NCBI GenBank assembly: GCA_963827655.1 | Contig: CAWHCF010000002.1 | Coordinates: 1-64,000 of the forward strand | Direction of reading: 5' to 3' | DNA from: an uncultured Acidobacteriota bacterium | GTDB taxonomy: Bacteria; Acidobacteriota; UBA6911 | DNA length: 64,000 nucleotides | Part shown: one piece after another, positions 1 to 12,484 of the stretch | Numbering within the stretch: position 1 is the first letter of the stretch | How the letters are laid out: each line of letters begins with the position of its first letter | Made by a program: the position numbers and the translations under genes | The notes under the pieces: model-generated | Told to the model about the DNA's origin: nothing | The model's input: the letters and a program-made list of their open reading frames with translations, nothing else | Database searches by the model: none

Positions 1-50
1 CGGTTGCAGAGCGGTGTGCGTATGTGCTGCAAGCGCTGGCAAACAGCAAC

Positions 51-128
51 GCCTAACCCTTCGTTGCACCCGACGCGCTGCGCCTGGCTGCGCCAGGCTC
101 CGCGCGCGGGTGAACTCAAACGTTGGGC
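51..128 (+). mobile_element. Integron attC recombination site
   Basis: R'' GCCTAAC (51-57) and R' GTTGGGC (122-128). Inner arms GTTGCACCCG / CGGGTGAAC pair with an extra base, and the centre is a GCCTGG/CCAGGC hairpin. The upstream ORF (…LQALANSNA*) stops inside R''. Confidence 0.85.
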
Positions 129-143
129 GGACTCGGATCGGGC

Positions 144-896
144 ATGCTCATAGAAATCGGACATGTGGAGGCGATCTTCCGGTATCCCGTGAAGTCCATG
201 GGCGGCGAACGACTCGAGGTCGCCAAGCTGGGCTGGCACGGCCTCGATGGTGACAGACGCCTGGCATTCCGGCGGATTGATGACCGCAGCGGGTTCCCGT
301 GGCTAACAGCAAGCAAGCTTCCCGATCTGCTCCTGTTTGCTCCGCGCCGCCGTGAAGACGGTGCTCAGGGAGACCTTCCTACGCATATTCGCACGCCGGA
401 TGGCGAAGAGATGCCTGTCTTCGGGGAGGACTTGGCCACGGAGGTCGGACGTCGGTACGGGGCTCCCGTGCAGATGATGCAGTTGAATCATGGCATCTTC
501 GATGAAGCGAGCATCTCCGTGATCGCCTTCGATACGGTGCGCGAGATCGGACGACTCGCGGGGCGGAGCCCGGATGTGCGACGATTTCGCCCGAATGTTG
601 TAGTTCGTTTACTGCGATCGGTTCCCTTCCAGGAGGACGAGTGGTTGGGCGGTGTGCTCTCATTCGGCGAGGGGGACGACGCCCCCGCCATCACCGTCAC
701 GATGCGCGACGTTCGCTGCTCGATGGTGAACCTTGATCCCGACTCAGCAAGTCCTGCGCCAGAAGTGCTGAAGGCGGTCGTTCGTGCGAACCAGAACAAC
801 GCGGGAATCTACGGCGCGGTCACTCGCATCGGTCGACTGGCGGTCGGACAGACCATACTCCTCCGTGCGGCGAGCGAGAAAAGGGAACGCGGGTGA
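144..896 (+). CDS. MOSC domain-containing protein (probable gene cassette)
   Basis: Motifs RYPVKSMGGE, GDRR, RRFRPN and RCSMVN. The ATG lies 15 nt after the attC R' box. Confidence 0.9.
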   Translation: MLIEIGHVEAIFRYPVKSMGGERLEVAKLGWHGLDGDRRLAFRRIDDRSGFPWLTASKLPDLLLFAPRRREDGAQGDLPTHIRTPDGEEMPVFGEDLATEVGRRYGAPVQMMQLNHGIFDEASISVIAFDTVREIGRLAGRSPDVRRFRPNVVVRLLRSVPFQEDEWLGGVLSFGEGDDAPAITVTMRDVRCSMVNLDPDSASPAPEVLKAVVRANQNNAGIYGAVTRIGRLAVGQTILLRAASEKRERG

Positions 897-919
897 TCGA
901 AACACATGTCCCGGAACGC

Positions 920-965
920 CGCCCAAACCCGGCGTTGCAGCTGATGAACGCCAGTAACGCCGTAG
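920..965 (+). mobile_element. Degenerate attC-like remnant
   Basis: GCCCAAAC-CCGGCGTTGCAGCTGA resembles an attC left arm and TGAACGCC resembles L'. No clear R' box is present. Confidence 0.4.
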
Positions 966-1245
966 TGTTTAGGGACATGACGCCACTTGTCAGTATAGTC
1001 GGCGTATCGGAGAAGTGGAGGAACTGGGATGGTTCCTTGCGGATGCCCCGCCACTTGTACGGTTTGCGCGTAGTACGTTCAGTGAGCACGTGAGGCTGGA
1101 GCTACGTGGTGTGGTTCGTGACAGCGTGCTCGGGCCCCAGCCTTTTGCTGGACGGCTCAATCGCGAAATCCAATAAACCGACGCCAATGACGTTTATAAT
1201 GACGCTCTCAATGTCCATTTCAACTCTAAGAGGAGTTCTCAACCG

Positions 1246-2442
1246 ATGTTCAGACAGGCTTCTCGGATCGTTCTCTTATGCGGTCTCGCTTCAGGACTAA
1301 CCACCCGGGCCACGCCCCAACGAGAAATCGACAAGTCTTCATCACCGACGGTCTCAACCCAGTTGGCCTCATCATCCCCTGAATCGCAAGGGGTCAACCC
1401 TGACCAACTGGCGTCGGCCTTTCGTCACGCCGGTTCGCTTCGCCCGCTGCTGAGCTTGCTCGTCTTGAAAAACAACGTCTTGATCGGAGAGGAGTACTTT
1501 CACGGCGCAACCCGCGACAGCGCTTACAATATCAAGTCAGTTTCAAAGAGCATCCTGTCGGCGCTGACCGGAGTCGCTCTCAGAGAAGGGTTCATCAAGA
1601 GTCTTGATGAACCCGTTTCAACCTTCTTCCCAGAATACTTCAGACCCCTCGACCAGAGTCAGATTGGCTGGGCCAGCCTGCGAGTTGAAACAGATCGCGA
1701 AAGACCTAAGGTGACGATAAGGCATCTCCTCACTCATACTTCCGGGTGGATCTGGGATGAGAATCAAATGCTCTTCTCTGCCTGGCTCTGGAGCACTGAT
1801 TACCTCCGTTTCTTCTTTGAGCTGCCGATTCACGGAAAGATCGGCGAAAGGTTTGTCTACAACACAGGGGGGACTCATGCGCTGTCGGCCCTCCTGGCCC
1901 GGGCCAGCAGGATGACAACCAAGGAGTTCGCCGAGCGATACCTGCTTGGGCCTGCGGGCATGGAAGTAAAGCGTTGGGATCGTGCCCCTGAAGGGACATA
2001 CATTGGGGGCGCTGAGATGCACTTCACGGCCCGCGACATGGCCAAGTTCGGCCTTCTCTACTTGAACCATGGGCGCTTGTGGGATAGACAGATTCTGACC
2101 GAGGAGTGGGTGCGGGAATCAACGTCAGAACGTGTAAAGGCCAGTTATGACGCTCGCAAAGACGTAGAAGTGCCGGAGAGCTGGATCTGGTCCTACCTCC
2201 AGCCAGGTCACTTTACCGGCTACGGTTACCTCTGGTGGCGACGGGACTCGGCAGGTTACGAAACCTACGTTGCGCTGGGGTACGGTGGTCAGTTTATCTT
2301 CGTGATCCCAGAGCTGAAAGCCGTCCTGGTTGCCACGTCCGCGTGGGATCGGGCAACCAATCCGAATCGCATGGCGCACTATCTGTCTTTCTTCGAGGTC
2401 TTCGACAAAGAGATCATTCCGGCGATCCGGCTCTCAAAGTGA
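1246..2442 (+). CDS. Serine hydrolase, beta-lactamase class C-like family, secreted
   Basis: Signal peptide, SVSK (SxxK), LLTHTSG, YN, ARDMAKFG, YGYLWW and GYGGQ motifs. AGGAG RBS upstream. Confidence 0.9.
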   Translation: MFRQASRIVLLCGLASGLTTRATPQREIDKSSSPTVSTQLASSSPESQGVNPDQLASAFRHAGSLRPLLSLLVLKNNVLIGEEYFHGATRDSAYNIKSVSKSILSALTGVALREGFIKSLDEPVSTFFPEYFRPLDQSQIGWASLRVETDRERPKVTIRHLLTHTSGWIWDENQMLFSAWLWSTDYLRFFFELPIHGKIGERFVYNTGGTHALSALLARASRMTTKEFAERYLLGPAGMEVKRWDRAPEGTYIGGAEMHFTARDMAKFGLLYLNHGRLWDRQILTEEWVRESTSERVKASYDARKDVEVPESWIWSYLQPGHFTGYGYLWWRRDSAGYETYVALGYGGQFIFVIPELKAVLVATSAWDRATNPNRMAHYLSFFEVFDKEIIPAIRLSK

Positions 2443-2659
2443 CTGGATCAGGAAGCCTCCTCGCCCATTCCCTCAGAGGTTGTTGGCGCCGCGGAAGAGG
2501 GTCGCCGGATCGGTCCCGGCTCGCTTGACTGCCCGTAAGAAGACCATTGTTTTCCATCATCGCGACGGGGGCCCGGTATATTACAGCCCTATTCGCGCCG
2601 CTACTCGATTTGAACATGTGGTCGGGTACTGATGTCTGTTTCTTCGCTTCCAATACGCC

Positions 2660-2842
2660 GTGTCATGCATGCTCGGGACGGAGGCGAGTGAGTTGAATCG
2701 ACTCATTTCTACAGCAGCCGTAGTACTGACGTTCGTCCTTGCTCAGCCGGCAATCGGAAACGCGGCCGAGATCCAAGTCTGGACGGCACTAGCGATTGCG
2801 ACCGTGCTCGCCGAGATCGGCTCCATGGAGCCGGCGCTCTAA
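2660..2842 (+). pseudogene. N-terminal fragment of a ModA-like substrate-binding protein
   Basis: Signal peptide followed by AEIQVWTALAIATVLAEIG, then an early stop. The TAA falls in CTCTAAC-CACGCCATGCAG, which resembles an attC left arm. Confidence 0.45.
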
Positions 2843-2897
2843 CCACGCCATGCAGGCCCTGCGGCGGCTCCGCCTCGAACAACCAGTCAATCCTGGC

Positions 2898-2996
2898 TTA
2901 ACAATTCCGCTGCTCAAAGCAAGCCCCAGCTGACACCCGATCTTCACATTTTTTAACCAGGACATTCATTTTTTTGTAGCACAGCGCGGATACCAT
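2898..2996 (+). promoter_or_regulatory. Putative Pho-box-like repeats and -10 upstream of the plcP-like gene
   Basis: TTAACA (2898), TTCACA (2943) and TTAACC (2953), with a possible -10 TACCAT at 2991. Spacing is 10 nt across a T-run. Confidence 0.4.
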
Positions 2997-3055
2997 ATGT
3001 AGCGCTGACGACGTGTAGCTAGCGCTATTGGTGGTAGTCACGGGGTCTTTCGAAA

Positions 3056-3895
3056 ATGATTCCACGAGTCCGCACCGTCTGGATTTCCGATATCCATCTT
3101 GGATTTCGAGGCTGCAGCGCCGATCGTTTACTCGACTTTCTGCACTCGGTTGAATCCGACTTTCTCTATCTCGTCGGCGACATCATTGATGTCCTGGAGA
3201 TGAGGCGACGGCTGTTCTGGCCGCGGTCTCACAACCAGGTCGTCCGTACCATTCTGGGAAAGGCCAAGCGCGGAACTAATGTGATTTACGTGCCCGGAAA
3301 TCACGACGAGCTTTTTCGGGATTACTGCGGCACGGTGTTCGGGAACATCCGGGTCACCCGGGAAGCGATCCACATCAAAGCCGACGGCCAACGCTTCCTC
3401 GTCGTCCACGGCGACAAATTCGACAGCGTCGTGCGTTGCTCGAAGGCCCTGGAACTCCTGGGAAGCCGGTTGTACCACTGGCTGCTACAGGCCAACACCG
3501 CCGTCCACTTTGTGCGCCGGAAGATGGGGCTGCCGTACTGGTCACTTGCCGCGTTCATGAAAAACAAGGTGAAGAAAGCGGTGCAGTACATCAGCAACTT
3601 CGAGGCTGGCGTCGCATTCGAAGCCGGACGTCTCGGCGTCGACGGCGTTGTGTGCGGGCACATTCACCGCGCGGAGATCACGAAAATCAACGGTGTCGTT
3701 TATTGTAACTGCGGGGATTGGGTTGAAAGCTGCACCGCCCTGATCGAGCACTATGACGGCCGGCTCGAGCTATTCGTGTGGCCCGACTCCAGAGACCGGC
3801 TCACGCCCATCGGCGAACCCGCTGATGAGCCCCTGACGCTTACCGCGCAGGCAGAGGAGCCGGCCCCCGAGCTGGAGGAACCCGTCAATGTCTAA
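3056..3895 (+). CDS. plcP: PlcP/LpxH-like metallophosphoesterase (probable phospholipase C of lipid remodelling)
   Basis: Motifs WISDIHLG, GDIID, PGNHD, HGD, CGHIH and NCGDWVESCTAL. Clustered with an agt-like GT4 gene. Confidence 0.75.
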   Translation: MIPRVRTVWISDIHLGFRGCSADRLLDFLHSVESDFLYLVGDIIDVLEMRRRLFWPRSHNQVVRTILGKAKRGTNVIYVPGNHDELFRDYCGTVFGNIRVTREAIHIKADGQRFLVVHGDKFDSVVRCSKALELLGSRLYHWLLQANTAVHFVRRKMGLPYWSLAAFMKNKVKKAVQYISNFEAGVAFEAGRLGVDGVVCGHIHRAEITKINGVVYCNCGDWVESCTALIEHYDGRLELFVWPDSRDRLTPIGEPADEPLTLTAQAEEPAPELEEPVNV

Positions 3896-3934
3896 GAGTT
3901 GGCCGCCGACGGCGTCCGCGCAATGGAGGCTCAA

Positions 3935-6212
3935 ATGATGATCGGGACCTTGCAAAGATGGTCCGCATACCAGGTCGAATCCACGGACGCGTGGCTGGCG
4001 CTCGCGCTGATCCTCGGAGCCGCGCTCCTTTTCCGTCTCGGCCGCTGGCTTCTGCTCGCGCTTGCGACTCTTCGCGCCATCGGCATGGACACCGGCCCTT
4101 GCGCGACGCCTGTCGCGCCTGGTCAAGTCCAACGATTACTCCGAGGAGAATTTCTTTCGAGCGGATGGCGCCGACGACCGCTGGGTGAACCGCCGCCGCC
4201 GGGGCTTGGATCGTCTGGCCGCGCACTTTCAGAGCCAGAACCCGCGATCCATTTCATGGGGAGACGCAATCCGGGAGGATCTATCCGACCTTCGCTTTAC
4301 GGACGCGGGAAGAGTGCCGTTCCCATTCATGCGGGTAATGCGCGACAAGTTTAACCTCTGTTCCGTCGCCACGGAGTCAGACGGGCCCCGCCTGCGCGAT
4401 CTGGACGATCACTGGACACTCGATCTTACCGGCTCGTATGGCGTAAATGTTGCCGGGTACAACCGATACAAGGAGTGGATGCAGAAAGGCTGGGAGCGCG
4501 TCAAGCACCTGGGCGCCGTGCTGGGTCCGCTCCATCCGGTGGTAGCCGAGAACATCGCAATCCTGAAATCCATCTCCAATCTGGATGAAGTGTCGTTTCA
4601 CATGAGCGGCACCGAAGCCGTCATGGCCGCCGTCCGGCTGGCGCGGTTCAACACCCGCCGAAGACTGATCGTGTGCTTCGCGGGAGCTTATCATGGCTGG
4701 TGGGACGGCGTGCAACCGGGGCTCGGAAGCGAGCGCGACATCGGCGACTGCCTCACGCTCAAGGACCTGCATCCGGCGTCGCTCGACATCATCCGACGGC
4801 GCGCGCACGAGATCGCCGGCGTCCTGGTAAATCCGATCCAGACTTTTCATCCGAACGCGCCGCCGCCCAGCGATGCCATCCTGGTGACCAGCACGATCCG
4901 GAAAACCGAGGACGGTCATGCGCGGTATGCGAAGTGGCTGAGCCAGCTGCGCGACGTCTGCACGGCGGGCGACGTTCCACTTATCTTCGACGAGGTCTAT
5001 TCCGGATTCCGGCTCGCTCCCCGTGGCGCGCAGGAGTACTTCAAAATCCAGGCTGACCTCGTCATCTACGGCAAGACGGTCGGCGGCGGCACACCCATCG
5101 GCGTTGTCTGCGGCAAGAAGCAGTTGATGCGCCGCTTCGACCCTGATCGCCCGATGCGGATCGCATACGTGATCGGCACGTTTTCCGCGCATCCTCATGT
5201 CATGGGCGCCATGAACGAGTTCCTGCGCTGGGTGACCGAACCCGCCACGGCGAGGTTGTATGAGCAAGCAAATGAACGCTGCACCCAGTGGGCTTGCGAC
5301 ACCAACGAACGCCTCGCCGAGGACCAGCTGCCGATGCGGGTCGCCCGCCTGGCAACCGTCTGGACTGTGCTATTCCTGCAGCCCAGCCGCTATAACTGGC
5401 TCCTCCAGTACTATCTACGAGCGGAGGGGGTCACACTCAGCTGGGTGGGGACCGGACGCTGCCTGAGCAACATGGACTTCACGGAAGAGCATTACCAGGA
5501 ACTTCAAACCAAGCTCTTGAAAGCGGCCTGGAGCATGAAGCAAGACGGCTGGTGGTTGACGGAGCAAGAGCAACCGGGGAGGGAAAAGAAGATGCGGATT
5601 GGCCTGATCAAGGAAACGTTCGGGAGTGTTGTGCAGGTGCCAAAGCCATTACGGGGTTTCTATGCGGAAGTTATGCGACGGAAGCACGACGACCACGTCG
5701 CGTCGCACAGTCATCCGGTCAATCAATTCTTGCATATCGTCAGCTCCAGCGTGTTCCTCTATTGTTACTTCCTTATCTTCACGGACCTGACGACTGCGGT
5801 CGCGTGCAGCCTCGCCGCGCTCTTTCTCAGGCAATTTGGCCACGCCGTCATCGAACCTCCGTGCCATGACAAAGAAGACCTCCTTTTGGGATTCAATACC
5901 CCGAACAAGACGCTCATCGTCGCCGGATATCTGCTGATCCCGATCATCAATATGATCCAGGGGGGTGTTTGGACCTTTGATACGCTGTGGGAAAAGATTC
6001 CGGCAATCGCCCGACAGTGGTTCGGTCTGACGCTAGTGGTCGTGCTCGGGCGAGTCGTCTATTTGGCCTGGATCCACAATTTTCGCGTTTCGATGATCTG
6101 GTTCGTGAAGCTCGTGACAGACCCCATCACTGACATCCTGGCCTACACGCCGCGCTATCTGAGTCCGTTGGCCTCTCTGTTGCCGTCTGCCCGGAGGCAC
6201 AAGGCCCAGTGA
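3935..6212 (+). CDS. Class III PLP aminotransferase (GSA-aminomutase-like) with N-terminal TM helix and C-terminal Mpo1/DUF962-like membrane domain; frameshift near 4082
   Basis: SGTEA, YHGW, FDEVYSGFR and GKTVGGG (PLP Lys). The C-terminus has HVASHSHPVNQFLH…RQFGH. Removing one G at about 4082 joins LATLRAI to AWTPALARR. GGAGG RBS at 3925. Confidence 0.8.
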
Positions 6213-6793
6213 ACGCGTGGTATCTGGTGGTGGCGGCTGCCGCCCTCAGTCTCGAGCGCATATGTTACCTCTGGGTGTGGCATCGCCCGGAGGCGTTTCG
6301 CCGCTTTTGCTCGAAGCCCCGCGTGGCGGCTCACGGCGAGCCGATCGACGTCCTCTGCAAACTCTTTTACGGGTTCAAATGCCTTCAGATCACCGTGTTT
6401 TTCGGCTGGTGTCACGTCTATGGTCATGGGTCGCTCTTCCCGCCCGCTCGGGAGATGGTGTGGATAGGGATGGGGGGAACGTTGATGCTGATCGGGCAGT
6501 TATTGAATTTCAGCGTGTTTCACCGTCTGGGAAAGATCGGCGTCTTTTATGGAAACAAGTTCGGCTATTCGATTCCCTGGTGCGACACGTTTCCGTTTTC
6601 GCTCCTTAGCCATCCGCAATACGTGGGCGCCGTGATCACAATCTGGGGGTTCTTCATCGCCACACGGTTCCCCTTTGAGGACTGGTTCGTCCTGCCCGTC
6701 CTTCAGACCGCGTACTATCTGGTGGGAGCGTACCTGGAGCGGCCGCGGGAGTTTCCTCAAACGATTCCAGCTCGAGACGAATCCCTCTGCTGA
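6209..6793 (+). CDS. PEMT/Opi3/PLMT-type phospholipid N-methyltransferase
   Basis: Multi-TM protein with GVFYG, FPFS and HPQYVG motifs. GTGA overlap couples it to the upstream gene. Confidence 0.8.
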   Translation: MNAWYLVVAAAALSLERICYLWVWHRPEAFRRFCSKPRVAAHGEPIDVLCKLFYGFKCLQITVFFGWCHVYGHGSLFPPAREMVWIGMGGTLMLIGQLLNFSVFHRLGKIGVFYGNKFGYSIPWCDTFPFSLLSHPQYVGAVITIWGFFIATRFPFEDWFVLPVLQTAYYLVGAYLERPREFPQTIPARDESLC

Positions 6794-6895
6794 TTTCCCG
6801 CGCCGTGAGTTTGAGTCATCGCCATAATCTCTTCCGCGGCCGTGCCGGTGGAACCGGGGTTGGATAGATGGTTGGAGAAACTCCTGGATCCGGCT

Positions 6896-7900
6896 TCACC
6901 CATGCCCAATCGGTTCAAGGTGCCCGACAAAGACCTCCGCGCAGGCCTTCCAGGAAAACCCAAGGGCGTATTCTCTGCACGCGCGGGGGGAGATTTTGAG
7001 GCATTGCTCAGCCGCCTGGGCAAGATCTTCGGACAGCACGCCGACCTGGGAATCTCCAATCACGTCCTTGGGACCCGTGACCGGATAGGCCGCGACCGGG
7101 ATGCCGGAAGCCAAGGCTTCCAGAATGACCAGGCCAAAGGTATCGGTCCGGCTGGGGAAAACAAAGACATCGCTCGCGGCAAAGTACAGCGCGAGCTCTT
7201 CGCCGAATTTGGCACGGGCGAATTGTGCCTGGGGATACTCCGAAATTAATGTCTCCAATTCAGGGCCGTCGCCTACTACCAGTTTGGTGCCTTCGAGCTC
7301 GAGGTCCAGAAAGGCGCGGATATTTTTCTCTACGGCCACACGGCCGACATACAGATAAATCGGGCGGCGGAAAGGAAGGAACCCTTTATCCCTTGGCCTG
7401 AATCGCTCGCTATCGACTCCCCGGTACCACGGAACGAGATTTTGAAACCCGCGCAGGGAGAGTTCCTCACGCAGCGTCTGGGTCGCCACCATCGTCCGCC
7501 GGGCGGCTCCATGAAACCAGCGAACCGCTCGGTAGGTCAAGAAAACGGGAATCCGCGTCCGGGCATGGATATATTCAGGAAAGCGAGTGTGAAAGGACGT
7601 CGTGAACGGAAGTTCTCTTCTTAAACAGTAGCTTCGGGCGGCAAGGCCGAGCGGACCTTCAGTTGCGATATGAATGGCGGCGGCTCGCGAGGAGTCCAGG
7701 ATATCTTCCACTCTTCTGCCCGCTCCGACGGCCAGACGGATCTCCGGATAGGTAGGACACGGAATGGTCTTGAACCGGTCGGGGCTGACCACGTGGACCT
7801 GGTGGCCCATCCCCACAAGTTCCTTGCCAACCGTGCTCAGGGTGGTCACGACTCCGTTGACCTGGGGAAACCAGGCGTCCGAAACAATGGAAATTCTCAT
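6896..7900 (-). CDS. GT4 glycosyltransferase, Agt-like (diacylglycerol glycosyltransferase candidate)
   Basis: Motifs SDAWFPQVNGVV, HIATEGPLG, HTRFPEY, VGRVAVEKN and DTFGLVILEA. Confidence 0.88.
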   Translation of the reverse strand: MRISIVSDAWFPQVNGVVTTLSTVGKELVGMGHQVHVVSPDRFKTIPCPTYPEIRLAVGAGRRVEDILDSSRAAAIHIATEGPLGLAARSYCLRRELPFTTSFHTRFPEYIHARTRIPVFLTYRAVRWFHGAARRTMVATQTLREELSLRGFQNLVPWYRGVDSERFRPRDKGFLPFRRPIYLYVGRVAVEKNIRAFLDLELEGTKLVVGDGPELETLISEYPQAQFARAKFGEELALYFAASDVFVFPSRTDTFGLVILEALASGIPVAAYPVTGPKDVIGDSQVGVLSEDLAQAAEQCLKISPRACREYALGFSWKACAEVFVGHLEPIGHG

Positions 7901-8163
7901 TGGGTCGTAAGACCAGCCTGGAACTGGGCGGCTGCGGCCCTCATGCCGGTGAACTGTCTCCAGACGAGCGTCGCGTCTTCGAGTAGGTATGGGTGTTCGC
8001 AATTATCGACCGCTTGGGTCGGGCGCCGCGGCCTCCGATGCGAAGCGACCGATCCCTCCGTCCAGTCTTCTCCGCCCGCCACGCGGACTTCCTTGAAGAT
8101 TCAAGCAACGAGCGCGGTCTTCCCACCCAAGCCACATTCATCCTCGGGTTGTTCACAGCCTGA

Positions 8164-8216
8164 ATTCTAAGGATTGATGTGAACTAACTGCGAAAGCGGG
8201 GTAAATTCCTTGTAAA
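8164..8216 (-). promoter_or_regulatory. Four-unit Pho-box-like array plus -10
   Basis: The minus strand reads TTTACA-aggaa-TTTACC-ccgct-TTCGCA-gttag-TTCACA with an exact 11-nt period, followed by TAGAAT 8 nt downstream. Confidence 0.65.
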
Positions 8217-8245
8217 AAGTGCGGGGGATCGAGAGTTGCCGCGCA

Positions 8246-9805
8246 TCATCCGAGGGCGCGTTCCAGAAGGTTGCGCGTGATGCGCTGCACGCGCGGGTCG
8301 GGTCCGTGCGGACGGCTCCAATGCGACCAGGGAAGCATGTGGCCAGGCGGCGTGGCCAATCCCTGGGACCAGAAGATCGTGGAAGCGTTGAAGACGAAGT
8401 TTCCCTTGGGCCCCGGGTAAATGGTCGCCGTCCACCGCGCCGGAACCGCCCCTCCTGTCAACGCCGTGCCTTCGGCCACGACTTCGAGTCCCGGGATCTC
8501 TGCGGGGTTGCCGTGGAATTCCCAGCCGACCAGGCCGGGTACCGCCTCACCTTTCTTCATTCCGGTGCCCTCGAAGATCCAGTGGCCGGGCTTGGTGCAG
8601 ATCCAGTCACCGCCGCCGTTGAAAGGCACGATGGTCCGCGCCCCGATAATCAGGCTCTCGTCCGGACCAGCGTAGGGGAACGGGCCCATCATCCGACCGT
8701 AGGTCGCTTTTTCCTCTTGGGACATTTCGCCGTAGCTGGCAGCGCGAGTCAGGACCCGGTTGGGTCTGCCGTCGCTGCTATCGGAGAACGGCGTCACCAT
8801 GTAGACCGAATTTCCGCACAGCCAGAGAACATTCACGCCGGCTTGAATGGATTCCCGCACGGCCTGGTATTGGCGCAGATCCCAGTACTCATCGTGCCCC
8901 ACGCTCAGAAACGTCTTGCAGCGGGTCACGGCGGAGGGTTCGAGCACGTCCTGGTTAGAACAATAGGTGACGTCATAGCCCTGTTGCTCGAGCCAGAAGC
9001 AAAGCGGGTATTCCCACAAGAGAAACTCGCCGGAGCCGACCGACTGTGGGTTGTCGAATATCTGGACATACTTGCCGTAGGGCCGGTCGAAGCTGACGGA
9101 GACATCGGGTGCGTGCGCGCCTCTTGGATCGGTATACAGCGAATAATCGTCCGGCCAGCGATTGTAAGCCTGCCAGGTGTTGTCGCTGCACTGGAAGAGA
9201 ATGTCCGCCCGCCGGCGGTCACGCACGACAAAGATGCAGTAGCTCTGCCAGTAGGTCTCCTGCTCCTTTTCGGGCGAGGTGGAGAGCCGGCCGAGGTAGA
9301 CACCGCTCGGCCAGTCCGCCGGGATCTTCAAGGAGACGCTCGATTCCCACCGGCACTCGCGCAGACGCCGCTCGCCCACAGGCGGATCTGGCTGTTTCCG
9401 CCCCTGGAACGGTCCGAGCCGCGTCATGCTCCTCGCCCCGAGCCCGCCATAAAAACCCAACCTGAAGACCTCGATGATGAACCGTGCCGGTGGATCCGTG
9501 CTCACCTTGATGTCGAGCGTCTGGCCGGCCTCGATGCTCTGCCGGGAGCAGTAGCCTTCGATCCAGGGTGAGCGGAATCCCCGGCTGCCGCCCTGGGTAC
9601 GCACACGGGTTAGTTGCCAGTCGCGCGCGCCCTCTCTTTTGTTTTCGTTCTTGACCAGTGAGGGACTGCGAGGGGAATCCGCCTGGCTTGCCGCGATGCG
9701 GATATCCGGTCCTGACAATGCGGCGCCCATCAAGACAGACGACTGTTTGATGAACCGTCGTCTTCCCACTCCGTTGGAGAGGCTCTGTCTTCGTTTGGTA
9801 GTCAT
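8246..9805 (-). CDS. Tat-exported N,N-dimethylformamidase beta-subunit-like protein
   Basis: RRRFIK Tat motif; TWQAYNRW, VSFDRPY and SVGHDEYW motifs. Confidence 0.8.
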   Translation of the reverse strand: MTTKRRQSLSNGVGRRRFIKQSSVLMGAALSGPDIRIAASQADSPRSPSLVKNENKREGARDWQLTRVRTQGGSRGFRSPWIEGYCSRQSIEAGQTLDIKVSTDPPARFIIEVFRLGFYGGLGARSMTRLGPFQGRKQPDPPVGERRLRECRWESSVSLKIPADWPSGVYLGRLSTSPEKEQETYWQSYCIFVVRDRRRADILFQCSDNTWQAYNRWPDDYSLYTDPRGAHAPDVSVSFDRPYGKYVQIFDNPQSVGSGEFLLWEYPLCFWLEQQGYDVTYCSNQDVLEPSAVTRCKTFLSVGHDEYWDLRQYQAVRESIQAGVNVLWLCGNSVYMVTPFSDSSDGRPNRVLTRAASYGEMSQEEKATYGRMMGPFPYAGPDESLIIGARTIVPFNGGGDWICTKPGHWIFEGTGMKKGEAVPGLVGWEFHGNPAEIPGLEVVAEGTALTGGAVPARWTATIYPGPKGNFVFNASTIFWSQGLATPPGHMLPWSHWSRPHGPDPRVQRITRNLLERALG

Positions 9806-9936
9806 GTGTGTTCCCTGCAGCAGACCCGGTTGGTGCGGCGAGTGTTCGCAACCAGATCACCCCCCGCTCACTTCACCCATCCCGCCGACCCCAGCAGCGA
9901 AAGGACTTGGTAGGTACAGACTCTTCCCAACGACTT

Positions 9937-10302
9937 TCACAGCCTGTAGGGAAATCGGATACCGGGATGGTCTGCGGGAAAATCCTTCGTGTTGCGGGTT
10001 ACGAAAAGACAACCCTCCTCCTCGGCGCTCGCCCATATGATGGCATCCGGAATTTTCAACCTGTACCGACGTCGCAAGGCAACCGCCCTCTCGGCGACTC
10101 GGCCGTCCAACTCTCGAATGCTGAATTTCTTCAGATAATCCCGGAAAGCGCCCTCGCCTGTCTCAGAGTCTGCGCCCACGAGAATCTCGATCCAGGTAAT
10201 TCGGCTGATGAGGCACTCTTCGTAGCGTTCCAGTTCAGCAAAAGCTGACGGAATTGCCTTGAGCGCATCAATGACAACGTTCGAATCAAAGAGGGCTTTC
10301 AT
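9937..10302 (-). CDS. vapC: VapC PIN-domain toxin
   Basis: Motifs FDSNVVID, ITWIEIL, KIPDAIIWASA and TRNTKDF. Confidence 0.9.
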   Translation of the reverse strand: MKALFDSNVVIDALKAIPSAFAELERYEECLISRITWIEILVGADSETGEGAFRDYLKKFSIRELDGRVAERAVALRRRYRLKIPDAIIWASAEEEGCLFVTRNTKDFPADHPGIRFPYRL

Positions 10303-10357
10303 GCGCCCGCGTGCGTTCTAGGGGAGCATAGACGCCTCCCTACGACGATTCGATCAG

Positions 10358-10591
10358 TCATTTCCTCTCCCATTCTTTACGAATACGTCGAACATACTGC
10401 ACCGAATCAACTTTACTCTTGCTTCCCTGCCACAAACCCACCGCGGGATGATTCCGCCAGCTCGACTTCGTTTTTGGCAGCAAGTGCGCCACCGCCTGGC
10501 GAACAGCCTCGGCCCGCGAAATCTTCTTGCGCCGGCAGAACTCATCGAGCGCTCTGATTTGCTCTTCGGGTAAATCTATTATCGTGCGCAT
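10358..10591 (-). CDS. vapB: CopG/RHH antitoxin
   Basis: MRTIIDLPEEQ…ISRAEAVRQAV…GLW; lies directly upstream of vapC. Confidence 0.85.
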   Translation of the reverse strand: MRTIIDLPEEQIRALDEFCRRKKISRAEAVRQAVAHLLPKTKSSWRNHPAVGLWQGSKSKVDSVQYVRRIRKEWERK

Positions 10592-10597
10592 TTCGAT

Positions 10598-10625
10598 ATC
10601 ATATAACGTTATCAGATGCAGGCAA
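10598..10625 (-). promoter_or_regulatory. Leaderless sigma70 promoter with palindromic operator for vapBC
   Basis: TTGCCT-N16-TATGAT ends 6 nt before the ATG. The palindrome ATAACGTTAT (10603-10612) overlaps the spacer. Confidence 0.55.
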
Positions 10626-10748
10626 AGGGGCACTTGTCGTTGATCTGAGTAGGGTAAAAAGACCCGACTGGGCGAATCAACTTGTCATTCATCGACATTT
10701 CCACTGTTTTTCGATCAGCAGACATACCCGAGATCGGGCTCCGCCGTG

Positions 10749-12484
10749 TCAGAAGATCTCCCTGAATACGTCTCCGTTGGAAAGCATGCTCCTATAGCCG
10801 CGGTAGTTCCACGCAGGTAGCAGCACCAATCGCTTGGGAAACTCCTTCATGATCAAGCCGGTGGTTTTCTTCCGGACCAGCTTGCTCTGGTTCAGTGTCG
10901 GATCCAATTCCCGCAGGATCCCGGCAATCGTGAGCTGAGACTTGATGAAGAGGGAAAACTGGGGCTCCAGTACATAACCCGCTTTGAACAACTCTTCCAG
11001 CAGCGCGCCATAAGCCTCGAATATCCCGCCCTTGACTTCCATGGCGCGCCCACCATCTCTTCGATCCTGGCCAGCTTCTGCGGGATCTTTGGGCAGGCCT
11101 CCCTTGATCAAGGAACCGACATTCCGGACCATCCGTTTCTTGCTCTTCTGGGTGTAGGCCAGACTGAGCTGTACCATCTCCATCCGCTGCTCACGAGGAA
11201 ACTCGCCCATCAATCCCCAGTCGAGCAAGCCCAGCTTGTAGGGGTCCTCAGGGTCGTCCTTGATGCGCACGATGTTCCCCGCGTGGGGGTCGCCATGGAA
11301 GATCGAGGTGTGCTGCCTGGAAAAGAGCGCCTCGAAGGTCATGACCGTAGCCAGCCGGTCGGCAAGAATCCGGCGGCTTTTCTGGTCCCCCGGGAAGGAC
11401 TCGGTGAGCTTCTGGATGTTGAGAAACTCCATGAAGGTCACGTGCTCGGTAGAAAAGTCAAAGATTTGCGGGACCTTTACCCCCTTATGATGCTTGTAGA
11501 ACTCGTAGGCCTTGCGGAAGTGCGCTTGCTCCTCGCTGACCTTGATCTCGTTTTCCAGCTGGACTCGGACGTCGGCGAAGAAGTCCTTCAGGTTGAATCC
11601 CTCGATGGCGTAAAAGTCCGCAAACTCTGTCACCAGAGTGATGAGACGATCGATGCTGCGCATCTCTTCGGGGAGGCCGCTCAGCACGTAGGGTTTAATC
11701 ACTTTGCAGACGAGGTTCTGCCGCTTCGACATCTCGCCGGACGGTTGGAACGAGCCGAAGATCACTGCGCCGACACTCGCTTCGGCAAGTATCCTGTCAT
11801 CAAACCTCAGTTTCGTATTTTCTGACCCGTTCCGCACCGACCTCCTTCTCGACGTAGGCGACGAGTTCGTCCCGATTCATGGTCCGGATGCCATTCTCGA
11901 GGCTCTGTAGTGACTGCTGGATATCTGGTGGAATACCCTCAAAACGAGCGATAATCTGGCCGATTTTCTGCAAGGTCGGAATTCTGGAAGCAAAGATCAG
12001 GATTTTCTCACCACGAGAAGCGTCCCTGGCATTCGCCATAGCCACTGCATGATCAATCATCCGTTCTTCGCTAAGCCCGTCCAGGAAAGCCAGGAGCGCA
12101 TCGTGAATGATCGGCCCGTATGTGTCGAAGGATTTCGCCGGCACAGTTTCGAGAACCTGGGAGCTGTGCACGAGGATTTCCAGCATTTCCGGCTTGTATT
12201 TCAAGAGTCCTGCGCCTCGAGCCAAGCGGATCACATCCTCCGGTTTCATCCGCGGAAGATCGCCAGGGTTGGCCCCGGCTTCCAGGAACTTCACGGATTT
12301 GCTTCCGGGTATCGGGGTCAGCGCCGGTCATGGCCTTGGTCATGAGCGCAAGCCGGGCGCTTTCGACATTGAAGGTCTTGTAGTGGTCCCTCGGAGTCGG
12401 CAGGACAAGCCCGGACTGGCCTCTGGCGGCTTGTGCCAGGGCGCAGAATAGACTGAGGCCAACAATAATGTTGCGAGTGGTCAT
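10749..12484 (-). CDS. AarF/ABC1/UbiB-family atypical kinase with N-terminal signal peptide; frameshifted near 12290 and 11820
   Basis: LQKIGQ, EASVG, VCKV, FHGDPHAGN and LLDWG are spread over three overlapping ORFs. Confidence 0.75.

Follow-up and report, generated by a model that had tools for sequence, protein, structure and literature searches.

Introduction

Replacement of phospholipids by phosphorus-free lipids is a major means by which microbes cope with scarce phosphate, and bacteria are known to use glycolipids, ornithine-type lipids, and diacylglyceryltrimethylhomoserine (DGTS) in their place. The closest described counterparts of the locus analyzed here are the PlcP-Agt operons of Sinorhizobium, Phaeobacter MED193, SAR11, Methylosinus, and Burkholderia cenocepacia, in which, according to passages of the published reports, a PlcP/LpxH-like metallophosphoesterase adjoins a family 4 glycosyltransferase (GT4), and the Agt-type GT4 of the species studied produces glucosyl- and glucuronosyl-diacylglycerol at low phosphate (PMC4796936, PMC13691135, PMC9239053). 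Here we describe a gene cluster in 64,000 nucleotides (nt) of DNA from an uncultured Acidobacteriota bacterium (assembly GCA_963827655.1, contig CAWHCF010000002.1, positions 1 to 64,000), a stretch that we call the window. The cluster has the same pairing of esterase and GT4 as the PlcP-Agt operons, but it also encodes an aminotransferase fused to an Mpo1-like membrane domain (together, the module) and a PEMT-family methyltransferase; aminotransferase, Mpo1-like protein, and methyltransferase all go unmentioned in those passages.

We propose, with a probability of roughly 0.5, that the locus belongs to the PlcP-Agt type of phospholipid-replacement clusters and carries an additional head-group module, which would make a nitrogen-containing, phosphorus-free lipid. 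Oxidation of a sugar position followed by transamination is also the logic of the ArnA/ArnB route to 4-amino-arabinose and of aminoglycoside C-6' routes. The substrates there are soluble nucleotide sugars or antibiotics, and the oxidases depend on NAD or flavin, whereas the oxidase proposed here would be a membrane Mpo1-like domain working on a lipid. To our knowledge, the pairing of an oxygen-dependent membrane domain with a transaminase is undescribed for lipid head groups, and the module has no studied member. A search of full texts, with supplementary tables of plcP neighbors outside its coverage, returned no paper on the aminotransferase-Mpo1 module in lipid remodeling and none on phosphate-stress lipids of Nitrospira.

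The module occurs in nitrite oxidizers and many soil bacteria. What is new here is its acidobacterial host and its rarity in the sample of that phylum, a frame break and its likely cause, a phosphatidylserine decarboxylase (PSD) paralogue and a PmtA-like enzyme specific to a split form of the module, a euglenid fusion of glycosyltransferase and aminotransferase, and a quantified test of the Pho boxes.

Gene content and conserved linkage of the cluster

An open reading frame (ORF) listing together with profile searches of the window recovered all the genes claimed in an earlier note on this DNA, in the places it had given. The first gene (3056-3895, plus strand) encodes a PlcP-like, calcineurin-type phosphoesterase of LpxH-like architecture (Metallophos, 48.2 bits). 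After a gap of 39 nt follows the fusion gene (3935-6212, plus strand), which encodes an N-terminal transmembrane helix, a class III aminotransferase resembling glutamate-1-semialdehyde (GSA) aminomutase, and an Mpo1/DUF962-like membrane domain. Read through, this gene spans about 3935/3938-6212, with a GGAGG 5 nt 5' of the ATG at 3935, and its longest uninterrupted ORF covers 4062-6212 on the same strand (Aminotran_3, 105.6 bits; weak Mpo1-like match). The GTG start of the PEMT-family membrane methyltransferase gene (6209-6793, plus strand) overlaps the TGA stop of the fusion by 4 nt (GTGA). From the 39-nt gap and the 4-nt overlap we infer that plcP, the fusion, and PEMT form one transcription unit. 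An Agt-like GT4 gene (6896-7900, minus strand; longest ORF to 8002) is convergent with PEMT, and the fusion and PEMT genes are inserted between plcP and GT4 in the window.

We surveyed gene neighborhoods with a panel of 15 proteins searched across 36 loci from species genomes and the best 80 of 580 metagenome relatives. Ten near-duplicate loci, picked by eye, and five distant transaminase loci (L032-L036) were left out; the typed, de-duplicated total was 86 (55 fused, 31 split), and linkage counts were restricted to loci flanked on each side by 3 kb or more. Two architectures were found, the fused form and a split form with separate aminotransferase and Mpo1-like genes, and these are the two main clades of the tree. 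Among 29 fused loci, GT4 was present in 27, plcP in 23, PEMT in 14, a PmtA-like methyltransferase in one, and the PSD paralogue in none, while ten split loci had GT4 in seven, plcP in five, the PmtA-like methyltransferase in five, the PSD paralogue in all ten, and PEMT in none. The fusion thus keeps company with plcP, a GT4, and a lipid-type methyltransferase in different phyla, a conserved linkage. The linkage predicted in the earlier note was borne out for GT4 and plcP, but PEMT, which it had counted as part of the set, is optional.

Gene order differs between groups. GT4 mostly lies directly upstream of the module on the same strand in non-Nitrospira operons, and on the opposite strand in Nitrospira-type loci. 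Nitrospira moscoviensis (L017) has the complete cluster, PEMT included. In one set of split loci (L024:7021-12197; L029:7015-12754; L087, L088, L093, L101, L112, L113) the PSD paralogue is divergent from the aminotransferase gene and is followed on the other strand by the Mpo1-like gene, a PmtA-like class I methyltransferase, an Agt-like GT4, and plcP. A split operon variant (L081:7866-14015; L085:7983-13956) has the order aminotransferase, a GT4 fusion of 909-921 amino acids, PSD, and Mpo1-like gene, with overlapping starts and stops; the first ~530 residues of the 909-921-residue protein matched no Pfam family in either locus, and GT4 lies at its end. The split-form methyltransferase is a class I enzyme whose best match, still below cut-off, is PmtA (NF045882, E 1e-35 to 1e-45). 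Since the split form has this PmtA-like enzyme and the fused form PEMT, two unrelated families of lipid-amine methyltransferase appear to fill the same slot.

A eukaryotic relative was found in Euglena mutabilis, where transcript P0123 (1189 amino acids; also P0273) encodes a single protein made up of a GT2-like domain, several transmembrane segments, and an aminotransferase with 50% identity. Its GT2-like N-terminus scores 22.4 bits, just under the cut-off, and its atlas neighbors are all GT2; no Mpo1-like domain was found in P0123.

Family assignments of the encoded enzymes

The translation of the phosphoesterase contains the metal-binding motifs DIH, GDIID, GNHDE, HGD, and GHIH. Against the LpxH equivalog models it reached 35.6 bits for TIGR01854 (cut-off 190.35) and 36 bits for NF003743 (cut-off 134), and at 35.7 bits it was the sole LpxH-model match in the whole genome, which has an LpxI_C match elsewhere (150.8 bits, cut-off 25; C23:140391-140780). 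We rejected LpxH as its identity on these scores, which lie far below the cut-offs, and on the presence of LpxI. The enzyme is 47-72% identical to esterases encoded next to the module in other loci and 47-62% identical to plcP-like genes adjoining an Agt-like GT4 in proteobacterial-type loci, and the GT4 gene 3 kb away makes it the neighbor of a putative gene for phosphorus-free lipid synthesis. It is therefore best described as PlcP-like rather than LpxH, as first suspected, an assignment made by family, context, and exclusion of LpxH.

The GT4 gene product contains both domains of the GT4 fold (Glyco_transf_4, 71.7 bits; Glycos_transf_1, 63.5 bits). Its true start is likely the ATG at 7900, since relatives align only from residue ~35 of the longest ORF. 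It is 48-57% identical to the GT4 enzymes that Nitrospira and proteobacterial loci encode next to plcP and the module, and its best NCBIfam models are lipid head-group glycosyltransferases, GlcNAc-PG synthase (57.6 bits) and monoglucosyl-diacylglycerol synthase (55.6 bits), both far below their cut-offs. The description of this minus-strand gene in the earlier note as a convergent, Agt-like GT4 agrees with these results.

The pyridoxal phosphate (PLP) aminotransferase domain of the fusion occupies 4353-5522 (plus strand; Aminotran_3 over ORF residues 98-487), with its catalytic lysine codon, in the motif YGKT, at 5073-5075. All 31 relatives in one alignment and all 10 in another share this Schiff-base lysine, which together with the family score places the domain in the class III PLP aminotransferase fold. 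We rejected an identity as GSA 2,1-aminomutase (HemL), for which the score was 157.8 bits against an equivalog cut-off of 527.3 (TIGR00713); because that cut-off is missed, the label 'GSA aminomutase' in the source annotations of relatives is unbacked. The best solved relative is instead the AMT domain of mycosubtilin synthase MycA (6kfm, 6kfr, 6kfu; E 1.3e-50 over residues 138-512), with GSA aminomutases some 20 orders of magnitude worse at ~1e-30, and C-6' aminotransferases are found among the weaker matches (7lld, E 1.8e-17). The AMT domain of MycA aminates a lipid-bound beta-keto group. It is embedded in a polyketide synthase (PKS)/non-ribosomal peptide synthetase (NRPS) and acts on a carrier-protein thioester, whereas the fusion is membrane-anchored, joined to an Mpo1-like domain, and has no carrier protein nearby.

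The kinship with MycA bears on one alternative, namely that the cluster serves modification of lipid A or lipopolysaccharide, or makes a lipopeptide-like secondary metabolite, with a phosphoesterase that is LpxH-like in action. We consider this very improbable. The nearest solved relative of the aminotransferase does come from a lipopeptide synthetase, and the alignment of the esterase to the LpxH model runs its full length (positions 1-224 of 231), but the LpxH cut-offs are missed five-fold in a genome that has LpxI, none of the 86 typed loci showed a PKS, NRPS, or carrier-protein gene next to the module with the panel and ORF clustering, and the partner genes encode diacylglycerol- or lipid-type enzymes.

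The C-terminal part of the fusion (5652-6209, plus strand) is a helical, Mpo1/DUF962-like membrane domain with an invariant His/Asp/Glu cluster, whose motifs are KHDDH (5682-5696), SHSH (5703-5714), FGHA (5835-5846), and TDPITD (6117-6134), all on the plus strand. An alignment of 28 copies, fused and split, conserves four histidines along with Asp and Glu residues without exception, and all 28 match PF06127 at E ≤ 0.1 (best 5.8e-6), while three other families each match one single member (E 0.03-0.07). This cluster and the PLP lysine are invariant in fused and split relatives alike, and the language-model neighbors of the split-form protein are DUF962/Mpo1-like clusters. The domain was modeled as an all-helical bundle (pLDDT 85.8), and a full-length model of P0001, a fusion protein 99% identical to that of the window, was of moderate confidence (pLDDT 79.9, pTM 0.68). 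The metal site should face the cytoplasm beside the PLP domain, because the His cluster comes directly after the soluble domain and its histidines sit at helix ends on one side. Mpo1 itself, a dioxygenase of 2-hydroxy fatty acids, requires Fe(II) and O2 (PMC10398889). Yeast Mpo1 belongs to PF06127 (formerly DUF962); it stands alone and degrades free fatty acids, whereas the domain in the window is fused and falls below the PF06127 cut-off.

The methyltransferase passes the gathering cut-off of PEMT (PF04191, 53.5 bits against 25), and its relatives align from residue 1. No NCBIfam model matched the gene, and neither its product nor the split-form enzyme reaches an equivalog cut-off; both resemble lipid N-methyltransferases (PEMT family, PmtA) at the family level. 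Ornithine lipids, with OlsG, provide a precedent for a phosphorus-free amino lipid that is N-methylated (PMC12971839).

Candidate pathway and alternatives

Taken together, these assignments suggest the following route. The PlcP-like esterase would release diacylglycerol from phospholipid, and the GT4 would add a sugar, either glucose or glucuronic acid. The Mpo1-like metal domain, at the cytoplasmic face of the membrane, would then oxidize a hydroxyl or alpha-hydroxy-acid function of the head group to a carbonyl, which the fused PLP domain would transaminate to a primary amine. Finally, the PEMT-type enzyme could N-methylate the amine with S-adenosylmethionine, giving a nitrogen-containing, phosphorus-free lipid that stands in for phosphatidylethanolamine (PE) and phosphatidylcholine (PC). 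Such a head-group tailoring line is the simplest reading of the constant set, which consists of a diacylglycerol-releasing esterase, a lipid-type glycosyltransferase, a membrane domain resembling a metal oxidase, a transaminase, and a lipid-amine-type methyltransferase. Recycling of the head groups released by PlcP, which the earlier note had offered as another function, does not fit well with a membrane-embedded fusion.

More specifically, and only tentatively, the module may make a new lipid class, an amino-deoxy glycosyl-diacylglycerol and its N-methylated, betaine-like form, as a zwitterionic or cationic mimic of PE and PC. Candidates for the amino-glycolipid are a 4-amino-4-deoxy-hexuronosyl-diacylglycerol, formed via a keto-glucuronosyl intermediate, and a 5- or 6-amino-deoxy sugar lipid. 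A 4-keto-glucuronosyl intermediate would fit because the transaminase is akin to enzymes that aminate beta-keto acyl groups, and a keto-glucuronosyl diacylglycerol has been tentatively assigned in phosphate-starved Burkholderia cenocepacia, which we take as a lead only (PMC13691135). On this reading the fusion would be a membrane oxidase-transaminase of a kind not known before, and the PSD of the split form would decarboxylate an amino-acid-type intermediate to a similar amine. If an amino or betaine glycolipid is indeed the product, the module would bring with it a new class of lipid as well as a new type of enzyme, may explain hitherto puzzling nitrogen-bearing lipids in soil and freshwater lipidomes, and could serve as a phosphate-stress marker for nitrifier membranes. 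Experiments could exploit the contrast between the two architectures and the exchange of PEMT for a PmtA-like enzyme as ready comparisons.

The domains of known amino-lipid routes were also sought. In the 90%-complete genome neither the OlsB-type domain PF13444 (OlsB/OlsF) nor the BtaA domain PF11899 was found, the latter a weak negative as the control matched in no control genome; the absence of BtaA and OlsB/OlsF noted for the window thus extends to the genome with that qualification. The idea of a new aminated, N-methylated lipid put forward in the earlier note is partly supported, by the exclusion of LpxH, the linkage, the failure to find the BtaA and OlsB-type domains in the genome, and the regulator and PstS-like genes beside the cluster in Nitrospira relatives, and it is weakened by the poor Pho-box scores, the lack of pst or pho genes nearby, and the optional PEMT.

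Several observations weigh against the head-group tailoring line. The Mpo1-like domain of the window scores 17.9 bits against PF06127 in the whole ORF and 20.9 bits alone, below the gathering cut-off of 24, and a fold search of the domain against PDB gave no match at E ≤ 0.001 (best TM-score 0.22-0.26). The sole characterized Mpo1 is, moreover, a degradative 2-hydroxy-fatty-acid dioxygenase and not a head-group oxidase (PMC10398889). PEMT is absent from 15 of the 29 fused loci, and the PSD paralogue, present in 10 of 10 split loci, has no role in the sugar-amination scheme. In the two Methyloversatilis genomes searched (of three loci), the PSD, aminotransferase, and Mpo1-like genes, a trio that Methyloversatilis universalis carries, stand alone, with plcP ~655 kb off and the best GT4 of the genome only 36-37% identical. 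To these points are added the Pho-box scores and the lack of pst/pho genes near the cluster, both described below.

The Methyloversatilis trio would suit a parallel branch, in which the fusion acts on diacylglycerol or another non-sugar lipid and GT4 and the fusion are separate consumers of PlcP-derived diacylglycerol; for example, the free sn-3 alcohol could be oxidized to an aldehyde and transaminated, and the amine methylated. The opposite strand of GT4 in the Nitrospira-type arrangement also favors such a branch, as do plcP clusters that carry alternative consumers of the agt, btaAB, and pgt types side by side (PMC4796936). We nevertheless think it unlikely, as GT4 is found in 27 of 29 fused loci and outside Nitrospira sits mostly directly upstream on the same strand, lies between the aminotransferase and PSD genes in some split operons, and has a counterpart in the glycosyltransferase-like domain that the Euglena homologue joins to its aminotransferase.

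The constant PSD partner of the split form points to chemistry like that of phosphatidylserine (PS) and PE, which the earlier note had not foreseen, and suggests, for that form at least, that an amine arises by decarboxylation of a head group of the alpha-amino-acid type. Under a rival explanation, PS/PE-type head groups or a close analogue are the substrates of the aminotransferase and the Mpo1-like oxidase, which would either build a serine- or ethanolamine-like head group from a hydroxy-acid or glycerol head group, or deaminate and oxidatively trim PE or PS in salvage of phosphate or nitrogen. The split-form paralogue passes the PS-decarboxylase model (160.9 bits against 111.75), and there are two PSD genes in each of three split-form genomes searched as opposed to one in each of three fused-form genomes searched. 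The closest named families of both methyltransferase types are PE N-methyltransferases, class III transaminases can work in either direction, and Mpo1 acts as a dioxygenase on alpha-hydroxy acids (PMC10398889). Yet none of the 29 fused loci, which keep plcP and GT4, has the PSD paralogue, and a route that retains phosphorus fits poorly with PlcP and with the Pho context in Nitrospira. In addition, class III aminotransferases usually act on amines that are not alpha to a carboxylate. On balance we regard phospholipid head-group chemistry as quite unlikely, and the head-group tailoring line as the preferred reading.

Integrity of the fusion gene

The N-terminal transmembrane helix of the fusion (3980-4078, plus strand; residues 15-47 of P0001, a hydrophobic stretch modeled as a helix over 15-47) is encoded in a different frame (ORF 3899-4354) from the rest of the gene in the window. 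Compared with P0001, a 757-residue protein that is 99% identical and in frame, the window has one surplus base at 4081-4082, just 3' of the helix; fusion relatives are 750-770 amino acids long and start with a transmembrane helix. The base is absent from the contigs of all three DNA runs that cover the site, which come from different studies (X1 at 4081, X2 and X3 at 4082), and the four genes contain no further stops or frame breaks. No run contained the stretch in full, the highest share of sampled words being 0.63. In the same assembly rpoB is split into two overlapping frames near 80968-81014 (G000:C8:77700-81924; L118 covers 76560-81176), and since this essential gene is also broken, consensus indel errors appear to occur in the assembly.

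The surplus base could alternatively be real, in which case the anchor would be cut from the enzyme and the cluster would be decaying in the acidobacterium. The frame break does stand in the assembly, and the rarity of the module in the phylum (3 of 401 genomes, the other two copies 31-32% identical) would fit a recent, dispensable acquisition. A dead gene is nonetheless improbable in the face of three independent DNA runs without the base, an in-frame P0001, a split rpoB, and four genes otherwise free of damage. The extra base is probably an assembly or consensus error, and on the evidence of the DNA runs, P0001, and rpoB we treat the fusion gene as intact.

In a rhizosphere metatranscriptome run (X16), a 205-nt contig matched fusion positions 4097-4298 with one mismatch, although carry-over of DNA is possible; the other contigs of this run were short and mostly from other organisms. 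The contig is a weak hint that a close relative of the fusion is transcribed.

Possible phosphate regulation

Pho-box-like repeats had been reported at both ends of the cluster. The repeats exist, but they score no better than the top 3% or so of upstream regions. Upstream of plcP, candidate repeats lie at 2942-2974 (plus strand; CTTCAC, TTTAAC, and ATTCAT at ~10-11 nt spacing), with the direct repeat CATTTTTT at 2947 and 2967 and a lone CTTAAC at 2897. On the GT4 side, four T-rich hexamers (TTTTAC, ATTTAC, TTTCGC, and GTTCAC, at ~11-nt spacing) lie at 8178-8217 on the minus strand, ~280-320 nt upstream of the likely ATG, which is unusually distant. We built a position weight matrix (PWM) of the Pho box from nine distinct Nitrospira phoB-pstS spacers. 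Trimer scores were 9.95 upstream of plcP (top 3.3% of 3863 upstream regions) and 10.0 upstream of GT4 (top 3.2%), and the region upstream of pstS fell in the top 1.1% of the 3863 regions of the host genome. A genome-wide scan was rejected as a means of finding Pho boxes, the PWM not being selective (647 sites above 10 bits, with the pstS site at rank 222 and the GT4 site at rank 645). Pho-box control of the cluster in the window is plausible but weak.

No pst or pho genes were found near the cluster in the window, including at 12-27 kb, and the following 20 kb is unrelated; the pst-phoU genes of the host lie on contigs C10 and C30. They occur there twice with identical scores (pstS...phoU at C10:816-5812 and C30:72-5069), at contig starts and in opposite orientation, and the two copies are probably overlapping contig ends rather than a true duplication.

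A phosphate context is found around the module elsewhere. GT4 is followed by an OmpR/PhoB-type regulator gene in 9 of 55 fused loci, all of them Nitrospira-type, and by a PstS-like gene in 11 of 55. The spacer between the regulator and the PstS-like gene (L002, L004, L006-L008, L011, L012, L014, L017) contains a conserved trimer of GTTAAC-like units at 11-nt spacing and, close to the gene of the regulator, the pair GTAAAT-N5-GTAAAC; together they make a candidate Pho box of Nitrospira.

Phylogenetic distribution

The host genome is acidobacterial by its 539-residue RpoB piece, for which all 14 named sequences among the 120 relatives listed were Acidobacteria/Acidobacteriota, though the nearest named relatives of the fusion are from Nitrospira. 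When the Mpo1-like domain was searched against 401 genomes from this phylum, three matched at E ≤ 1e-15, the host included. In a tree of 103 aminotransferase parts (FastTree only; rows with hits shorter than 1400 nt or with stops left out), the protein of the window pairs with P0002, and these two and three further proteins share a clade (support 97) with a 17-row Nitrospiraceae clade without being nested inside it. Carriers of the module were found in Nitrospirota, Methylomirabilota, Binatia, Proteobacteria, some Acidobacteriota, and one euglenid. Judging from these comparisons, the module has likely moved between phyla. There is no GC anomaly over the cluster, which has a GC content of 0.57-0.63 against 0.57-0.61 for the contigs of the genome.

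Additional features

No Rfam family matched within positions 1-12000 of the window, and a scan of 2400-8400 for sigma-70-like promoters gave 0 sites. Two terminator-like sites from the same scan were discarded, as both lie within coding sequence.

Divergently upstream of plcP, Nitrospira-type loci (L001-L020, L038) carry an alpha/beta-hydrolase gene (15 of 55 fused loci), and a tetratricopeptide-repeat gene is likewise found there in 11 of 55; neither gene is at that place in the window. Immediately upstream of GT4 in the window, and on the same strand, lies a gene resembling the beta subunit of N,N-dimethylformamidase (8246-9805, minus strand; DMFA2_C, 267.8 bits), whose product has an N-terminal twin-arginine-like signal, RRRFIKQS.

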